NCBI GenBank assembly: GCA_035575675.1
Contig: DATLXS010000182.1
Coordinates: forward strand, 880 to 64,879
Reading direction: 5' to 3'
DNA length: 64,000 bases
Source of the DNA: Gemmatimonadales bacterium
Lineage (GTDB): Bacteria > Gemmatimonadota > Gemmatimonadetes > Gemmatimonadales > GWC2-71-9
The notes below the pieces were generated by a model. That model was not told the DNA's origin, made no database searches, and saw nothing but the letters and a program-made list of their open reading frames with translations. The stretch's first letter is position 1. The number at the start of each line of letters is the position of its first letter. Both the position numbers and the translations under genes were made by a program. Of the stretch, positions 26,571 to 34,261 are shown piece after piece.

Positions 26571-27380
26571 ATGGCAACAATGACAGAACCGCAGGTCAAG
26601 ACACTCGTGCAGTACCGGAGCGAGGGCGGGCTTGCGATCATCGCGCTCGACGATCCCCCGGCCAATACCTACACGTATGACATGATGCGCCAGCTCGACG
26701 AGGCGATCCTCCGCGCGCGTTTCGACGACACGGTGCACGTCATCGTCCTGCGCGGCCACGGCGACAAGTTCTTCTCGGCCGGCGCGAACATCGGCATGCT
26801 GAACACGGTCACGCCCCGCTTCAAATACTTCTTCTGTCTGCACGCCAACGAGACGTTGAACCGGTTGGAGCAGACGCCCAAGCTGACGATCGCGGCGCTC
26901 AATGGGCACACCGTCGGCGGCGGTCTCGAGATTGCGATGGCGTGCGACATCCGGCTCGCAAAGGAGAATGCCGGAAAGATCGGTCTCCCCGAGGTCAACC
27001 TCGGCGTGCTCCCGGGAACCGGTGGCACCCAGCGGATGGCGCGTCTCCTTGGCAAGCCGCTGGCGATCGAGCTGATGGTGAAGGGCGAGCTGTTCTCGTT
27101 CGACCGCGCCAAGGAAATCGGGCTCGTGAACGAAATCTTCCCCGCCAAGGACTTCTGGGAGCAGGTGCTCCTCTACGCCAAACAATTCTGTCCGCCCCAC
27201 AAGGCGTCGAAGGCGGTCGGCTTGATCAAGCGCGCCGTGCAGTCGGGAGCCGAGGTTCCGTTCGAGTCGGCGCTCGCGATCGAGCGTGAGCTGCAACAGC
27301 AGCTGTTCCAGAGCGAAGACGCCAAAGAAGGGATCGCCGCGAATCAGGAGAAGCGGGTGGCGGAGTTCAAAGGGAAGTGA
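26571..27380 (+). CDS. Enoyl-CoA hydratase/isomerase family protein
   Basis: 269 aa. Crotonase-fold motifs FFSAGANI and LNGHTVGGGLEIAMACDIR. Confidence 0.9.
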   Translation: MATMTEPQVKTLVQYRSEGGLAIIALDDPPANTYTYDMMRQLDEAILRARFDDTVHVIVLRGHGDKFFSAGANIGMLNTVTPRFKYFFCLHANETLNRLEQTPKLTIAALNGHTVGGGLEIAMACDIRLAKENAGKIGLPEVNLGVLPGTGGTQRMARLLGKPLAIELMVKGELFSFDRAKEIGLVNEIFPAKDFWEQVLLYAKQFCPPHKASKAVGLIKRAVQSGAEVPFESALAIERELQQQLFQSEDAKEGIAANQEKRVAEFKGK

Positions 27381-28810
27381 AGACCGACCTCTTCATTAAT
27401 AACGAGTGGCGGCCGGCAAGCTCTGGGAAACGCTTCCGCGTCGAGAATCCGGCCACCGAAGAGAACCTGGCCGACGTCGCCCAGGGCGATGCCGCGGACG
27501 TTGACAATGCGGTTCGCGCCGCGAAGACCTGCTTTGAATCGCAAGCGTGGCGGGACATGTCAGGGAGGAAGAGAGGAAAACTCCTCTTTAAGGCGGCGGA
27601 TCTGTTGGAAGCACGGCTCGACGAAGTCGCCCGGCTCGAGACGGCACAGAACGGCAAGACGCTGTTCGAGTCGAAGATCGAGATCGGGATGACGATCAAC
27701 ACGCTGCGCTACTACGCGGGGTGGGCGGATAAGATCGTCGGCGACACGCTGCCGGTCGAAGGCCCGTTCTTGACCTACACCTTGCGCGAGCCGATCGGCG
27801 TCGTTGGCGCGATCGTGCCCTGGAATTTCCCGCTCAACATCGCGAGCTGGAAGTTCGCCCCTGCCCTCGCGGCCGGGTGCACGGTTGTCCTGAAGCCCGC
27901 GTCGGAAACGCCCCTCACGGCCCTGCTCTTCGCCGAGATCGCGCTCGAGGCGGGCCTGCCGCCGGGCGCGTTCAACGTCGTGCCGGGCGGCGGCGCGACG
28001 GCCGGAGCCGCACTCGTGCGGCACCCGGATGTCGACAAGATCTCGTTCACCGGATCGACCGAGGTGGGCCGGCAGGTCATGAAGATGGCCGCCGAGACGA
28101 ACAAGCGCGTCACCATGGAGCTGGGTGGCAAAAGTCCCAACATCATCTTTGCCGACGCCGACCTGAAAGCTGCCGTGCGCGGCGCGCAGACGGGAATCTT
28201 CTACGGCAAAGGCGAAGTGTGCGCTGCCGGATCGCGTCTGTTGGTTGAGAAATCGGTGCATGCGCAGGTGATCGAGCAGCTCGCTGAGGGTGCGAAGAAA
28301 ATGACGCCCGGCGATCCGCTCGATAAAAACACCCGGCTCGGCGCGCTCGTCTCCAGGAAACAGCAGGAGACGGTGCTCTCCTACATCAAGCGCGGTGTGG
28401 ACGAAGGGGCGCAGCTCGTGGCCGGGGGGAAGGCGGCGAAGCCCAACGGCAAGGGCTACTACGTCGAAGCGACCGTGTTCGACGGCGTGCAGCCAGACAT
28501 GACGATCGCGCGCGAAGAGATCTTTGGGCCGGTGCTTGCCGTGCTCACGTTCGACGATTTCGAGCAGGGTGTGAAGCTCGCGAACAACACCATTTACGGT
28601 CTCGCCGCCGGGCTGTGGACGAAGGACATCCAGAAAGCGCACCGCGCCGCCAAGGCGATTCGCGCCGGCACGGTGTGGATCAACTCGTACAACTTCTACG
28701 ACTCCGGCGCGCCCTTTGGCGGGTTTAAAGCATCGGGATTCGGCCGCGATCTCGGCCGCGAGGCGCTCGACGGTTACCTCGAGACCAAGACTGTGTGGGT
28801 CGCCCTGTGA
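27377..28810 (+). CDS. NAD(P)-dependent aldehyde dehydrogenase
   Basis: 477 aa. ALDH motifs VPWNFPL, FTGSTEVG, MELGGKSP and GEVCAAGSR (catalytic Cys). GTGA overlap with the upstream gene. Confidence 0.9.
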   Translation: MKTDLFINNEWRPASSGKRFRVENPATEENLADVAQGDAADVDNAVRAAKTCFESQAWRDMSGRKRGKLLFKAADLLEARLDEVARLETAQNGKTLFESKIEIGMTINTLRYYAGWADKIVGDTLPVEGPFLTYTLREPIGVVGAIVPWNFPLNIASWKFAPALAAGCTVVLKPASETPLTALLFAEIALEAGLPPGAFNVVPGGGATAGAALVRHPDVDKISFTGSTEVGRQVMKMAAETNKRVTMELGGKSPNIIFADADLKAAVRGAQTGIFYGKGEVCAAGSRLLVEKSVHAQVIEQLAEGAKKMTPGDPLDKNTRLGALVSRKQQETVLSYIKRGVDEGAQLVAGGKAAKPNGKGYYVEATVFDGVQPDMTIAREEIFGPVLAVLTFDDFEQGVKLANNTIYGLAAGLWTKDIQKAHRAAKAIRAGTVWINSYNFYDSGAPFGGFKASGFGRDLGREALDGYLETKTVWVAL

Positions 28811-32541: not shown

Positions 32542-33395
32542 ACCCCCCTCGCGTCGCCGTACTCGGCGCCGGCACGATGGGGCACGGCATCGCCTACATC
32601 GCTGCGCTCGCAGGATGCAAAGTCAGGCTCACCGACGCACAACCCGATGCCCTGCCCCTGGCGATGAGTAAAATCGAGAGCTTGCTCGAAGGTGGCGTGA
32701 AGCGCGGGAAGATCACCGAGCAGGAGCGGAATCAGGTCCACGAGCGGCTGCGCGCCGAGCCGCAGCTCGGTGCCGCGGTCGCCACGGCCGACATCGTGAT
32801 CGAGGCGGTCGTCGAGGACCTGGCGATCAAGCAGCGCCTCTTCGCGGATGTCGAACGCGCGGCGCCGCCCGATGCCCTACTCGCCACAAACACCTCTTCA
32901 TTATCGATCGGGCAGATCGCCGCCCCGATGGCGCACCCGGCGCGACTGGTCGGCATGCACTTCTTCAATCCGGTGTACGTCATGAAGCTGGTCGAGGTCG
33001 TCACCCACGGACGCAACAGCCGGCCCGCGGCCGAGCGCGCCGTGGAATTCGCCCGGCAGCTCGGCAAGGAGCCGATCGTCGTGCGCGATTCCCCCGGTTT
33101 CGCGTCCAGCCGGTTAGGGGTCGTCCTCGGCCTCGAAGCGATGCGCATGCTCGAGCAGGGCGTGGCGAGCGCGGAAGACATCGACAAGGCGATGGAGCTG
33201 GGCTACAACCACCCGATGGGGCCGCTCAAGCTGACCGATCTCGTGGGCCTCGACGTGCGCCTGGCGATCGCCGAGTACCTGCATGCGACGCTCGGCAAAC
33301 CGCAGTACGAGCCGCCGAAGATTCTGAAGGAGAAGGTGAGCAAGGGCGAGCTGGGGAAGAAAACGGGAAAGGGGTTCTACGCCTGGGGCGATTGA
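32538..33395 (+). CDS. 3-hydroxyacyl/3-hydroxybutyryl-CoA dehydrogenase
   Basis: 285 aa. VAVLGAGTMGHGIA Rossmann motif, FFNPV.., SPGFASSR and MGPLKLTDLVGLD. Confidence 0.9.
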   Translation: MNPPRVAVLGAGTMGHGIAYIAALAGCKVRLTDAQPDALPLAMSKIESLLEGGVKRGKITEQERNQVHERLRAEPQLGAAVATADIVIEAVVEDLAIKQRLFADVERAAPPDALLATNTSSLSIGQIAAPMAHPARLVGMHFFNPVYVMKLVEVVTHGRNSRPAAERAVEFARQLGKEPIVVRDSPGFASSRLGVVLGLEAMRMLEQGVASAEDIDKAMELGYNHPMGPLKLTDLVGLDVRLAIAEYLHATLGKPQYEPPKILKEKVSKGELGKKTGKGFYAWGD

Positions 33396-34261
33396 GCCGT
33401 ATCACCGACGTCCACATCCATATCCAGCCGTGGCGCGACCTCAAGCCCAAAGTCCAGGAGGCGATGCGCAAGGGGAAAGAGGACCATTGGGAGGTCCTCA
33501 TCTCCCTGATGGACGATCCCCGCGCGCTGCTCGAGATGATGGACAAATCGGGCGTCTGGCGCGTCGGCCTCGTCAATTATCCGAGCCCCGACATCATGGG
33601 GTTCGACGATTCGACCAACACATTCGCCGCCACCTACGCCCGCGCGAATCCCGAGCGGCTGTTGCCCTATGGCGGCGTGCACGCGCGTTTCACGCGCGAT
33701 CCTGCGGGCGACGTCGATCGCTTGATCGATATGGGCATCCGGTTGCTCAAAATCCATCCGCCGCACCAGGCCTTCCCCGCCAACGCCTACACCGACGGCC
33801 TCGCGGCGCTTGGCCAGATCTACCGGCGCTGTGAAGAACGCGGCCTGCCGGTGATGATCCACACCGGCACATCGATCTTCCCGGGCGCGCGCTCGAAATT
33901 CGGCAATCCCATGGAGCTGGACGATGTCGCCATCGATTTTCCGGATCTGCAACTCGTGATGGCCCATGGCGGGCGGCCGCTCTACATGGAGGAAGCGTTT
34001 TTCATCCTGAGACGTCATAGGAAAGTCAGGCTCGATGTCTCAGGCATTCCGCCCTCCAAGCTGCTGGAGTACTTTCCTCGCCTGACGGAGATCTCGGACC
34101 GCGTGCTGTGGGGCACCGACTGGCCCAGCCCCGGTGTGAAAGACCTCCGGCAAAACATCGATCAGTTCCTGGCCCTGCCGCTTACGAACGAGCGGCAACA
34201 GGCTATCCTCGAAACCAACGCGCTGGCGCTTTTCCCTATGGAGTCTCGAACCCATGCATAA
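33392..34261 (+). CDS. Amidohydrolase-2 (TIM-barrel metal-dependent hydrolase) family protein
   Basis: 289 aa. ITDVHIHIQPW (HxH), ..IHPPHQ.., MIHTG and WGTDWP motifs. TTG start overlapping the upstream stop. Confidence 0.75.
   Translation: MSRITDVHIHIQPWRDLKPKVQEAMRKGKEDHWEVLISLMDDPRALLEMMDKSGVWRVGLVNYPSPDIMGFDDSTNTFAATYARANPERLLPYGGVHARFTRDPAGDVDRLIDMGIRLLKIHPPHQAFPANAYTDGLAALGQIYRRCEERGLPVMIHTGTSIFPGARSKFGNPMELDDVAIDFPDLQLVMAHGGRPLYMEEAFFILRRHRKVRLDVSGIPPSKLLEYFPRLTEISDRVLWGTDWPSPGVKDLRQNIDQFLALPLTNERQQAILETNALALFPMESRTHA

Follow-up and report, generated by a model that had tools for sequence, protein, structure and literature searches.

BoxA and BoxC are the usual partners of BoxB, and canonical boxB lies between boxC and boxA in Mycetohabitans and beside boxC in Nonomuraea. 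Biochemical work has shown that BoxC is recovered together with BoxB on purification and relieves product inhibition, that the active N-terminal domain of BoxC carries two glutamates used as in PaaF, and that phenylacetyl-CoA is not accepted by canonical BoxB (PMC4498308). The iron ligands of BoxB and the roles of its benzoyl-pocket residues have also been described (PMC5489048). Here, we analysed a 64,000-nucleotide stretch of a soil Gemmatimonadales genome (the window), in which a 376-aa short BoxB-like diiron oxygenase, BoxBs, is encoded in an operon with enzymes of β-oxidation type, and compared its neighbourhood across 84 fetched loci from at least eight phyla or candidate phyla. We lean towards reading this operon as a variant, aerobic box-type CoA-thioester pathway for aromatic acids, in which an aryl-CoA would be epoxidized and its ring cleaved, a reading built on homology and gene context within a clade of uncharacterised proteins.

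The operon forms a translationally coupled unit on the + strand (25998–34261). Its first gene encodes a TetR regulator (25998–26567; Pfam TetR_N and TetR_C_24), followed by a 269-aa single-domain crotonase, ECH1 (26571–27380; ECH_1, 174.9 bits), an NAD(P)-dependent aldehyde dehydrogenase, ALDH (27377–28810; Aldedh, 615.8 bits), a thiolase of the 3-oxoadipyl-CoA (PcaF/PaaJ) type (28795–29991), a second crotonase of 245 aa, ECH2 (29991–30728; the second ECH_1 match), BoxBs (30728–31858), a GDPD-family phosphodiesterase (31855–32541; GDPD, 103.4 bits), a 3-hydroxyacyl-CoA dehydrogenase, HADH (32538–33395; 3HCDH_N and 3HCDH), and an Amidohydrolase_2-family protein (33392–34261; PF04909, 117.3 bits). 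Open reading frames and Pfam domains agree on this gene content, which is that of the original prediction. The overlaps of 1 to 8 nt that it described hold except at two junctions: TetR and ECH1 are separated by a 3-nt gap, and ALDH and the thiolase overlap by 16 nt if the thiolase starts at GTG 28795, a start that is uncertain because close relatives have 388 to 389 aa, with starts called 9 to 10 codons shorter. ECH2 starts at the ATG at 29991, which overlaps the thiolase stop; the mechanical ORF start at 29670 gives too long a protein. An identical gene order is found in 10 other Gemmatimonadota loci, so the arrangement is more than chance. Two M16-family peptidase genes (Pfam; 34254–37738, + strand) lie 3′ of the operon, the first of which (34254–35627) overlaps the Amidohydrolase_2 gene by 8 nt, and they are probably co-transcribed with it here. 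They are set apart from the cluster by other genes in locus L001 and missing in L002 to L004, and lie outside the module that is conserved elsewhere.

BoxBs matches PF05138 (PaaA_PaaC) with 51.6 bits and the BoxB equivalog model TIGR03225 with 226 bits, against 37.8 bits for the PaaA model. Its best sequence match in the PDB is BoxB (3PER; E 5e-53), and its AF2 model (pLDDT 77.4) has BoxB as its best fold match (TM 0.78–0.82), with SSO1313 and PaaA at about 0.5. By these matches, the nearest relative of BoxBs is BoxB. Its TIGR03225 score is less than half of the curated cut-off of 499.1, which we counted against a box-type reading, and the protein is indeed, as first noted, about 100 aa shorter than canonical BoxB (376 versus 471–481 aa), lacking four BoxB segments. 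Residues E83, E113, H116, D172, E201 and H204 align with the BoxB iron ligands E120, E150, H153, D211, E240 and H243, and the full set of six is retained in 46 of the 47 sequences that have the position. The proposal that the protein might fall outside BoxB with its ligands lost thus finds no support: the metal site is intact, BoxB is the best match in both sequence and structure, and the short forms make up their own clade adjoining canonical BoxB. Five of seven benzoyl-pocket residues are also kept in BoxBs (Q79, T82, S86, F154 and F164), and the equivalents of Q116, T119, S123, F193 and F203 are invariant among 82 short forms. The other two are replaced, F206 by Y167 and T210 by I171 (canonical BoxB numbering for the replaced residues). 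Because these changes are near-universal in short forms (F206Y in 80/82, T210M/I/V in 81/82), substrate or regiochemistry may differ, and the two substitutions may leave room for a modified substrate. We propose that BoxBs is an aryl-CoA epoxidase, presumably of the benzoyl-CoA type.

In a neighbor-joining tree, the short forms, which lack the 15- to 26-aa insertion, form a clade apart from canonical BoxB, with members in Gemmatimonadota, Acidobacteriota, Eremiobacterota, Binatia and others. At least 588 matching stretches occur in GTDB species genomes, a share of which may be canonical BoxB, and the best 80 loci among them cover at least eight phyla or candidate phyla. BoxBs identity is 70 to 99% within Gemmatimonadota and 51 to 61% between phyla, which does not support the idea of a clearly degenerate copy. 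In Zixibacteria, Ignavibacteria and some Acidobacteriota, short boxB stands alone amid housekeeping genes, a point against a box-type reading.

The predicted lack of BoxA, BoxC and a CoA ligase was borne out within the window. Pfam searches of selected long, high-GC3 ORFs (∼2.1–62.6 kb) found no BoxA-type Fe-S/FNR protein, long BoxC or AMP-forming ligase; tblastn with genuine BoxA, BoxC and benzoate-CoA ligase queries gave no match for BoxA or the ligase, and a weak partial match to ECH1 as the sole similarity for BoxC; and six-frame motif scans returned nothing convincing. That no activating enzyme or reductase was found in the window was counted against a box-type reading. BoxA and BoxC were likewise found in 0/84 loci from at least eight phyla or candidate phyla, with queries that pass their own equivalog models; the query set found BoxB and BoxC in the Nonomuraea locus, yet no BoxA. 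Their absence near the gene is a trait of the whole short-form clade, whose core is shared by several major soil phyla, each time without them. An ordinary but split box pathway, with BoxBs a normal BoxB orthologue, canonical BoxA and BoxC encoded at other sites of the genome and this operon serving as lower pathway, appears improbable to us. Linkage of boxA is not mechanistically required, because BoxA acts catalytically and contacts BoxB only transiently (PMC4498308), the canonical boxB-boxC pair of Nonomuraea has no BoxA match within 9 kb, and our view of this genome covers 64 kb; yet a normal orthologue is hard to reconcile with a distinct clade marked by four deletions, two diagnostic pocket changes and a score so far below the equivalog cut-off, with the contrast between the 84 loci and the linked canonical genes of Mycetohabitans and Nonomuraea, and with the linkage of another reductase pair in Binatia. 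In five Binatia loci and in L057, a 2Fe-2S ferredoxin and a NuoF-like flavoprotein directly follow the BoxBs gene, and this pair is a candidate alternative electron donor.

ECH1 is clustered with BoxBs in 67 of the 84 loci, is 64 to 76% identical across phyla and retains both hydratase glutamates (GGGLE and LPEV). Against BoxC, the median score of its orthologues is 93.6 bits, compared to 43.5 bits for the other crotonases of the same loci, with ranges that do not overlap; on these scores, ECH1 is the operon crotonase nearest to the BoxC catalytic domain. Compared with all solved structures, however, ordinary hydratases are closer (2PPY, 233 bits; BoxC, 90 bits), which speaks against a box-type reading, and ECH1 could simply be the pathway's hydratase. 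We propose that it may act as a ring-opening hydrolase and functional analogue of BoxC.

The remaining enzymes bear on the substrate. The best NCBIfam models of ALDH are StyD phenylacetaldehyde dehydrogenases, below cut-off, and its best PDB matches are class 1/2-type ALDHs. It adjoins short BoxB in 7/7 Gemmatimonadota, 20/26 Eremiobacterota and 19/38 Acidobacteriota loci, and we propose that it is a semialdehyde dehydrogenase with a BoxD-like role. The thiolase (NF006551, 539.2 bits, cut-off 605; TIGR02430, 530.5 bits, cut-off 597) and HADH (NF006722, 319.4 bits, cut-off 429) score below their models' cut-offs, and we propose for HADH a PaaH-like role in converting 3-hydroxyadipyl-CoA to 3-oxoadipyl-CoA. 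ECH2 lacks both hydratase glutamates, with GGGAN and VFHKLGLGPDWGG in their place, and has PaaG models and structures among its matches, below cut-off. A presumed resemblance to PaaG, including the position of the catalytic Asp, makes it look like an isomerase, and we propose that it may isomerise dehydroadipyl-CoA or an epoxide/oxepin. The nearest solved structures of TetR are 5K7F/5K7H/5K7Z and 3VPR, which we take to be the acyl-CoA-binding regulators AibR and PfmR; a TetR gene lies at the same place in Gemmatimonadota loci and in most of those from Acidobacteriota, and the regulator is probably an acyl-CoA-responsive repressor.

This enzyme set, with up to three crotonases, ALDH, thiolase and HADH, matches a paa lower pathway equally well, and there is some chance, though we think it rather unlikely, that BoxBs epoxidises phenylacetyl-CoA or another aryl- or heteroaryl-CoA (for instance a hydroxy- or amino-benzoyl-CoA) in place of PaaABCDE. 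ECH2 would then be the PaaG isomerase, ECH1 an alternative crotonase-type oxepin-CoA hydrolase, and ALDH a semialdehyde or phenylacetaldehyde dehydrogenase. The top ALDH models, the below-cut-off matches of ECH1 and ECH2 to alternative oxepin-CoA hydrolase and PaaG models, and the two clade-wide pocket changes fit such a substrate, and PaaX-family regulators, divergent and adjoining BoxBs-ECH1 in Eremiobacterota, hint at phenylacetyl-CoA, which we counted against a box-type reading. BoxBs is nevertheless much nearer to BoxB than to PaaA in both score and fold, the remaining residues with which BoxB binds the ring and thioester of the benzoyl group are invariant, canonical BoxB refuses phenylacetyl-CoA (PMC4498308), and the neighbours in Acidobacteriota and Rokubacteria are of benzoyl type. 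One is an enzyme resembling 4-hydroxybenzoyl-CoA reductase, whose alpha subunit scores 1007.5 bits (cut-off, 994.55) and whose beta subunit carries a Cys-rich insert; the other, a gene of the benzoate-CoA ligase family, is seen in L043 as a fragment directly 3′ of BoxBs (250 bits across 224/508 positions). A pair of CoA-transferase subunits (CoA_trans) occurs in a short-boxB neighbourhood of another phylum. Taken with the PaaX regulators, these neighbourhoods outside Gemmatimonadota suggest that the substrates are aryl-CoAs.

The mid-operon phosphodiesterase, which the original prediction left unexplained, carries HRG, ENS and ELDVH, which we take to be the canonical GDPD catalytic motifs, and its nearest structures are ordinary small GDPDs. 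The gene follows BoxBs in 10/10 other Gemmatimonadota loci and has no counterpart in loci of other phyla, even at E 1e-3; its identity within Gemmatimonadota is 37 to 53%, against 68 to 76% for BoxBs. We treat this Gemmatimonadota-only insertion as a lineage-specific passenger and assign it no pathway step. The Amidohydrolase_2 protein matched no NCBIfam model; it shows an HxH motif and, late in the sequence, an Asp, and is probably metal dependent. Its nearest structures are BB4693 (3IRS), an uncharacterised protein, and, at a weaker level, the lactonase LigI. With orthologues of 44 to 52% identity in Acidobacteriota and linkage to BoxBs in Gemmatimonadota and 18/38 Acidobacteriota loci, it is a recurrent cluster accessory and a candidate lactonase, hydrolase or decarboxylase. 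That neither protein has an assigned step was counted against a box-type reading. GDPD could instead free glycerol-3-phosphate from glycerophosphodiesters in an operon for lipid or fatty-acid β-oxidation, with the diiron protein an O2-dependent acyl-CoA desaturase or hydroxylase replacing the acyl-CoA dehydrogenase that Pfam and NCBIfam did not find among the operon genes. The β-oxidation-type enzymes, the FadR-like TetR and the expected GDPD motifs agree with this, but we regard it as very improbable given that GDPD is limited to Gemmatimonadota while the BoxBs-ECH1 core is not, that the benzoyl-binding residues are conserved, and that aromatic-CoA enzymes adjoin in other phyla. Lack of an acyl-CoA dehydrogenase together with a 3-oxoadipyl-CoA-type thiolase means that a box/paa lower pathway suits the operon better than fatty-acid β-oxidation.

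For the box-type pathway that we favour, we infer substrate, catalytic steps, electron donor and regulation as follows. BoxBs would use O2 and two electrons to form an epoxide on the ring of benzoyl-CoA, or of a close aryl-CoA, the electrons presumably coming from a donor other than BoxA that is encoded unlinked in this genome. ECH1 would open the ring of the epoxide/oxepin by water addition and retro-Claisen-type cleavage, and ALDH would oxidise the resulting CoA-semialdehyde. Dehydroadipyl-CoA would then be processed by ECH2 (of isomerase type), a hydratase, HADH and the thiolase to yield succinyl-CoA and acetyl-CoA; ECH3 would serve as this hydratase in other Gemmatimonadota, and here perhaps ECH1 or an unlinked enzyme. 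TetR would probably keep the operon repressed as long as no acyl-CoA intermediate is bound. The original suggestion of a variant CoA-thioester epoxidation with a different substrate or donor is in line with the kept ligands, the separate clade, the BoxA/BoxC-free loci, the Binatia candidate donor and the pocket changes. Built around an uncharacterised, shortened BoxB relative, the operon probably represents an unstudied variant route for aromatic acid breakdown. It departs from the known pathways in its ALDH, which belongs to a subfamily other than BoxD/PaaZ, with no BoxD-type entry within its top 60 PDB matches, a difference that weighs against a box-type reading. The step proposed for ECH1, by comparison, is the job of the active N-terminal domain in the two-domain BoxC, and the single-domain ECH1 and that domain both possess the two glutamates.

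By every sequence and structure criterion available, BoxBs, the 376-aa diiron protein encoded at window positions 30728-31858 (+), appears to be BoxB-like. It falls within the PaaA_PaaC superfamily (PF05138, 51.6 bits with a gathering score of 28.5); its top solved relative is the BoxB epoxidase of A. evansii (E 5e-53), followed by SSO1313 (E 1.6e-16) and then PaaA (E ~1e-4); and the top 11 Foldseek hits of its AlphaFold (AF2) model (pLDDT 77.4) are all BoxB, at query-normalized TM scores of 0.78-0.82, with other folds reaching about 0.5 or lower. The iron ligands of BoxB are Glu120, Glu150, His153, Asp211, Glu240, and His243 (PMC5489048), and E83, E113, H116, D172, E201, and H204 of BoxBs align with these six residues, which are kept in every examined sequence of the short form, that is, the BoxBs clade, but one divergent representative. 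Five of the seven residues of the benzoyl-CoA pocket are identical in BoxBs, and the equivalents of the second-shell benzoyl-CoA residues Gln116, Thr119, Ser123, Phe193, and Phe203 are invariant in 82 short forms. The two changed pocket positions are Phe206, which is Phe in 19/19 canonical proteins and Tyr in 80 of the 82 short forms, and Thr210, which is Thr in 19/19 canonical proteins and Met, Ile, or Val in 81 of the 82 short forms, with Gln in one.

BoxBs nevertheless falls outside the BoxB equivalog on three counts, namely, model score (226.1 bits against TIGR03225, with a cut-off of 499.1 and a best stretch covering profile positions 85-256 only), architecture, and boxA/boxC linkage. The original prediction that the protein is about 100 aa shorter than BoxB was correct (376 aa compared to ~470 aa), with four segments missing: (i) the N-terminal extension, (ii) a 15- to 26-aa insertion after position 217, (iii) a mid-C-terminal insertion, and (iv) the C-tail. 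When placed in a phylogeny, as had been proposed, the short forms make up a clade apart from canonical BoxB in a neighbor-joining tree built on the shared core, with the iron ligands kept. Judged from its sequence, BoxBs thus belongs to a distinct subfamily of diiron enzymes related to BoxB; it is intact and strongly conserved, and we rejected the idea of a degenerate BoxB copy. We likewise rejected an identification as PaaA, given a score of 37.8 bits against a cut-off of 280 (TIGR02156) and no PaaB/C/D/E-type genes in the window operon. The exact BoxBs sequence was not on record in our look-up, and its context is drawn from close relatives, the nearest being 99% identical sequences from metagenome-assembled genomes; the organism is a soil Gemmatimonadota bacterium. 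Proteins of this type carry public names such as "hypothetical", "Phenylacetic acid catabolic protein", and, at JGI, "benzoyl-CoA 2,3-dioxygenase component B". In the searchable literature, we found neither this clade nor its gene cluster described, nor BoxB-like proteins in the carrier phyla or BoxB alongside 4-hydroxybenzoyl-CoA reductase, and the Vulcanimicrobium paper mentions nothing aromatic. Two further variants emerged from the homologue set: P0164 (495 aa), a third BoxB-like type that lacks the mid insertion, carries a long extension at its C terminus, and groups with neither clade, and P0189 (367 aa), a short form, possibly a noncatalytic paralogue, whose iron ligands are lost (HNSNHH).

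BoxBs lies among nine tightly packed genes on the + strand (window positions 25998-34261), encoding a TetR regulator (25998-26567), the first crotonase, ECH1 (26571-27380), an aldehyde dehydrogenase (ALDH; 27377-28810), a thiolase (28795-29991), the second crotonase, ECH2 (true start at ATG 29991, overlapping the thiolase stop), BoxBs, a GDPD phosphodiesterase (31855-32541), a 3-hydroxyacyl-CoA dehydrogenase (HADH; 32538-33395), and an amidohydrolase-2-family protein (Amidohydro_2; 33392-34261). The original prediction described all genes as joined by 1- to 8-nt overlaps, which applies to most junctions; a 3-nt gap follows TetR, and ALDH and thiolase overlap by 16 nt, the latter only if GTG 28795 is the real thiolase start. 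The chain continues downstream into two M16 peptidase genes, and GC3 is 0.80-0.89 across the operon, as elsewhere in the window. Scans for promoters and terminators stayed within shuffled expectation, and a search for an inverted repeat upstream of TetR found none, so we propose no operator. Divergently upstream of TetR lie an ECF-type sigma factor gene and two small genes without recognizable domains (25338-25892 on the - strand and 24338-25341), and the position of the sigma factor is kept in most Gemmatimonadota loci (L001-L003, L034, L076, L079, L087, and L089). The best matches of the thiolase are PcaF/PaaJ-type models of 3-oxoadipyl-CoA thiolases, with scores just under the cut-off of both top models (TIGR02430, 530.5 compared to 597; NF006551, 539.2 compared to 605), and the ALDH falls in a class 1/2-like group, outside the BoxD/PaaZ group. 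An operon for lipid oxidation, with BoxBs as a diiron desaturase, would also employ crotonases, a thiolase, and HADH. However, the operon has no acyl-CoA dehydrogenase and its thiolase is of the 3-oxoadipyl-CoA type, so that a box/paa lower pathway fits better than fatty acid oxidation, and we regard the lipid reading as very improbable.

The operon was also said to lack BoxA, a long BoxC, and a CoA ligase, which is borne out within the window by Pfam, tblastn, and six-frame motif scans. Pfam searches of selected long, high-GC3 ORFs (~2.1-62.6 kb) yielded no BoxA-type Fe-S/FNR protein, long BoxC, or AMP-forming CoA ligase, tblastn of the window, queried with the genuine BoxA, BoxC, and benzoate-CoA ligase sequences of a control locus, found none of the three, and six-frame motif scans of the window returned no convincing BoxA, BoxC, or ligase. 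Across 84 loci of relatives, inspected with flanks of up to 10 kb (for the source genome, the 64-kb window was inspected), there is no BoxA-like protein, no 4Fe-4S/FNR protein, and no crotonase of >376 aa; in tblastn, the only BoxC similarity in the window and these loci is weak, partial, and directed to ECH1. In the Mycetohabitans control locus, a ligase, a regulator, and boxC-boxB-boxA are arranged in the classical way, with BoxC and BoxA passing their equivalog models (TIGR03222 and TIGR03224, respectively), and a search of a plasmid collection, which served as a positive control, recovered only canonical BoxB and PaaA. Linkage to the reductase is not universal even for canonical BoxB: Nonomuraea gerenzanensis carries a canonical, full-length boxB with boxC behind it (L086:8740-12829; its BoxB shares 62% identity with that of Mycetohabitans), and no BoxA match lies within 9 kb on either side of the pair. 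A canonical box pathway with split genes would accommodate such unlinked partners, but it would have to be reconciled with the absence of BoxA and BoxC from all 84 loci and with the low score of BoxBs against the BoxB model; we consider it improbable.

The recurrent partner of BoxBs is instead ECH1. ORF clustering and tblastn across the 84 loci place it on the same strand as BoxBs, at 64-76% identity, in 7/7 Gemmatimonadota, 33/38 Acidobacteriota, and 25/26 Eremiobacterota loci, as well as in the single loci from Rokubacteria (1/1) and from a "Proteobacteria" MAG (1/1). Between phyla, ECH1 is thus more conserved than BoxBs itself (51-61%); a homologue search started from ECH1 returned only Gemmatimonadota sequences, at an identity of at least 85%. 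ECH1 is a single-domain protein of 269 aa with both hydratase glutamates present. BoxC is absent from its top 25 NCBIfam models. ECH1 orthologues score a median of 93.6 bits to BoxC compared to 43.5 for the other crotonases of the same loci, with disjoint ranges. Among all solved structures, it is closer to ordinary hydratases (best hydratase, 233 bits; BoxC 2W3P, 90 bits), and a role as BoxC analogue is therefore not based on specific homology; we infer it from linkage, conservation, and chemistry. BoxC itself has two crotonase domains, of which the N-terminal one alone is active, with an active site of two Glu residues positioned as in PaaF, and it copurifies with BoxB and relieves BoxB product inhibition (PMC4498308). 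ECH2 lacks both hydratase glutamates and carries an Asp in a GPDWGG motif; it is presumably isomerase-type, by what we take to be a resemblance to PaaG.

At least 588 stretches in GTDB species genomes are related to BoxBs, a share of which may be canonical BoxB, and the best 80 of these come from Acidobacteriota, Eremiobacterota/Vulcanimicrobiota, Gemmatimonadota, Binatia, Zixibacteria, Ignavibacteria, Rokubacteria, and Eisenbacteria. Frequent linked genes across the 84 loci encode ALDH, thiolase, HADH, and a TetR or PaaX regulator. The check on gene order suggested in the original prediction showed the order of the window operon in ten other Gemmatimonadota loci, and the closest lineage (89-93% identity) matches the window operon gene for gene. 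In Gemmatimonadota further removed, ECH3, a third and canonical crotonase, lies between HADH and Amidohydro_2. The window and the L087-L089 lineage lack it at this position (window 32538-34261 compared to L001:11785-14263), and since HADH and Amidohydro_2 overlap by 4 nt in the window, the loss is clean. No ECH3 orthologue lies elsewhere in the window: the crotonase at 54245-55003 was rejected as the missing gene, being only 34% identical and part of a second acyl-CoA cluster (53800-61119, - strand) that also encodes an AtuA-family protein (55314-56696) and an acyl-CoA carboxyltransferase (59524-61119) and resembles acyclic terpene/leucine (atu/liu) catabolic clusters. A gene at 61508-62572 (-) encodes a protein with a baeRF_family10 domain (bacterial archaeo-eukaryotic release factor family 10; 42.8 bits).

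Two members of the operon fall outside the proposed pathway steps. GDPD matches PF03009 (103.4 bits compared to 23.6) and resembles ordinary small glycerophosphodiesterases, with AHRG, ELENS, and ELDVH motifs corresponding to HR..., EN., and E.D.H, which we take to be the family-defining catalytic motifs. It occurs in all Gemmatimonadota loci and in no other phylum among the loci compared, and its identity (37-53%) is far below that of its neighbors; we treat it as a probable lineage-specific passenger. An apparent 565-aa BoxBs-GDPD fusion from an ENA metagenome contig (P0031) was rejected as evidence of a physical partnership: it is a truncated singleton in which BoxBs is short of its final 24 aa and GDPD of its initial 15 aa, the HRG motif among them. 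It most likely arose by an in-frame deletion or by chimeric assembly. Amidohydro_2 accompanies BoxBs repeatedly in two phyla, and the solved structures closest to it are those of an uncharacterized protein and, weakly, the lactonase LigI.

The neighbors of BoxBs in other phyla tie its clade to aromatic acyl-CoA metabolism and support the view that it is a reductase-dependent oxygenase. The typical order in Acidobacteriota is TetR, ECH1, ALDH, BoxBs, a CoA-transferase subunit, a crotonase, a CoA-transferase subunit, rhodanese, a three-subunit molybdenum enzyme, and Amidohydro_2. The alpha subunit of this molybdenum enzyme passes the 4-hydroxybenzoyl-CoA reductase equivalog (1007.5 compared to 994.55), and its FAD (beta) subunit carries the Cys-rich insert of that reductase. 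Such genes are found in Acidobacteriota and Rokubacteria (L025:1876-5690, L011:14106-18314, and L043:1-5140). Known 4-hydroxybenzoyl-CoA reductases belong to anaerobic aromatic metabolism, which makes their pairing with an O2-dependent BoxBs in one gene cluster unusual. On the Rokubacteria contig, the reductase-like genes, ECH1, and BoxBs are followed by the N-terminal half of a protein of the benzoate-CoA ligase family (250 bits over 224/508 profile positions; 41% identical to the control ligase). In Binatia, a gene for a thioredoxin-like 2Fe-2S ferredoxin of 107 aa lies within 16 nt downstream of BoxBs and, 4 nt further, one for a NuoF-like FMN/4Fe-4S protein of 419 aa (L047:9911-12681; same in L049, L058, L059, L078, and L057); ECH1 is unlinked in these loci. 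This pair is a plausible candidate for a dedicated, non-BoxA reductase. In Eremiobacterota, BoxBs-ECH1 is preceded by a divergently oriented PaaX-family regulator, upstream of which are a PaaH-like HADH, a thiolase, and ALDH; the other cluster neighbors (helicase, MFS transporter, alpha/beta hydrolase, and DNA ligase) are uninformative.

Several further features of these loci deserve mention. A conserved protein of ~107 aa, without a Pfam or NCBIfam match, is encoded between ALDH and the short BoxB in 17 Eremiobacterota loci (cluster C13; L017:8254-8577) and could be an accessory subunit. A single-domain rhodanese recurs near the short BoxB, in 12 Acidobacteriota loci (cluster C21; L077:12085-12408) and at L081:11049-11495, where it is directly downstream of the BoxB copy and no other pathway gene is among the immediate neighbors of that copy. 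In L006, L008, L014, L060, and L081 (Ignavibacteria, Zixibacteria, and some Acidobacteriota), the short BoxB is isolated, surrounded by housekeeping genes encoding IspH/LytB, a GTPase, DnaB, and an outer-membrane beta-barrel protein, and no crotonase or beta-oxidation genes are found within 10 kb, which is odd for a catabolic enzyme.

Taken together, we favor, with moderate confidence, a variant box-type aryl-CoA epoxidation pathway in which benzoyl-CoA or a close derivative is the most likely substrate. We infer each of its steps: BoxBs would epoxidize the aryl-CoA, most likely benzoyl-CoA or a close derivative, using O2 and electrons that an unlinked or generic donor would supply; ECH1 would open the epoxide/oxepin hydrolytically; ALDH would oxidize the resulting semialdehyde; ECH2, a hydratase, HADH, and the thiolase would lead to succinyl-CoA and acetyl-CoA; and TetR would sense an acyl-CoA. 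The same scheme acting on phenylacetyl-CoA or another aryl-CoA is the main rival. The box and paa pathways converge on dehydroadipyl-CoA, so that the enzyme set is compatible with either substrate, and PaaX-family regulators accompany BoxBs in Eremiobacterota; the largely identical benzoyl-CoA pocket and the remote similarity to PaaA point to benzoyl-CoA, and we judge the rival substrate to be possible but rather unlikely. What would be new in this box-type pathway is its set of parts: the epoxidase is shortened, the crotonase has a single domain, the ALDH is of another kind, and BoxA is missing.

We further propose, more tentatively, that the BoxBs-ECH1 pair may be the core of an aryl-CoA ring-cleavage pathway that is aerobic (or micro-oxic), has so far gone unrecognized, and is widespread in Acidobacteriota, Gemmatimonadota, Eremiobacterota, and Binatia. 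It would operate without BoxA and BoxC, draw electrons from nondedicated or NuoEF-like donors, and be fed in Acidobacteriota by a 4-hydroxybenzoyl-CoA reductase, coupling reductive dehydroxylation to O2-dependent epoxidation. Tyr in place of Phe206 and Met/Ile/Val in place of Thr210 could then mark a changed substrate range or O2-activation mechanism. Aromatic acids from lignin and plant phenolics represent a large soil carbon flux, and the phyla that carry the module rank among the most abundant and the least cultured of soil bacteria. Pipelines based on KO terms name BoxBs "benzoyl-CoA 2,3-dioxygenase component B", and metagenome studies consequently count it as box pathway; given that it fails the curated BoxB model and that its BoxA and BoxC partners are absent from the loci compared, this is a mislabel. 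If the variant pathway is true, the "box pathway" potential inferred from soil metagenomes would need revision, a minimal epoxidase/ring-hydrolase pair would be defined, and the mechanistic question would become how a BoxB-type diiron center is reduced without BoxA. Its pairing with a 4-hydroxybenzoyl-CoA reductase-like enzyme would unite anaerobic-type and aerobic strategies in a new hybrid. The module is widespread in major soil phyla, and it raises testable questions about both electron supply and substrate.

Compared to known systems, BoxBs is closest to BoxB from Azoarcus/Aromatoleum evansii (3PER, 3PF7, 3PM5, and 3Q1G), with which the model shares the ferritin-like diiron fold and to which it is homologous over its whole length, with ~39% identity and all six metal ligands in common. 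Its operon also contains a crotonase, an aldehyde dehydrogenase, and 3-oxoadipyl-CoA-forming enzymes. Unlike BoxB, it is never linked to boxA or boxC in the window and the 84 loci, and whereas BoxB is mainly proteobacterial, BoxBs occurs in Gemmatimonadota, Acidobacteriota, Eremiobacterota, Binatia, and others. The predicted ring-opening enzyme ECH1 shares with BoxC the crotonase fold, the two catalytic glutamates in the PaaF positions, and tight genetic coupling to the epoxidase, and no other crotonase of the same locus is as similar to the active N-terminal domain of BoxC (~34% identity over ~200 aa for ECH1); BoxC, in contrast, has ~555 aa. The molybdenum enzyme next to BoxBs in Acidobacteriota and Rokubacteria has three subunits, like the 4-hydroxybenzoyl-CoA reductases HcrCAB/HbaBCD (TIGR03193-03195), although its beta and gamma subunits are below the cut-off and its genes are absent from the window. 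SSO1313 from Sulfolobus solfataricus (4MUD), named [quoted passage not shown], is the second-best match in sequence and fold and, like BoxBs, a short, stand-alone superfamily member without an assigned function, but it has 235 aa, is ~25% identical, and comprises the four-helix core only. Finally, PaaABCDE, whose oxygenase belongs to the same PF05138 superfamily, and the paa lower pathway (PaaG, PaaZ or a crotonase-type oxepin-CoA hydrolase plus ALDH, PaaF, PaaH, and PaaJ) follow the same logic of CoA-thioester epoxidation, hydrolytic ring opening, and beta-oxidation-like steps, with the same lower-pathway enzyme families and, in one phylum of BoxBs carriers, PaaX-type regulators. The difference lies in the oxygenase: BoxBs is only remotely similar to PaaA (TM ~0.5) and, like BoxB, is a single polypeptide.
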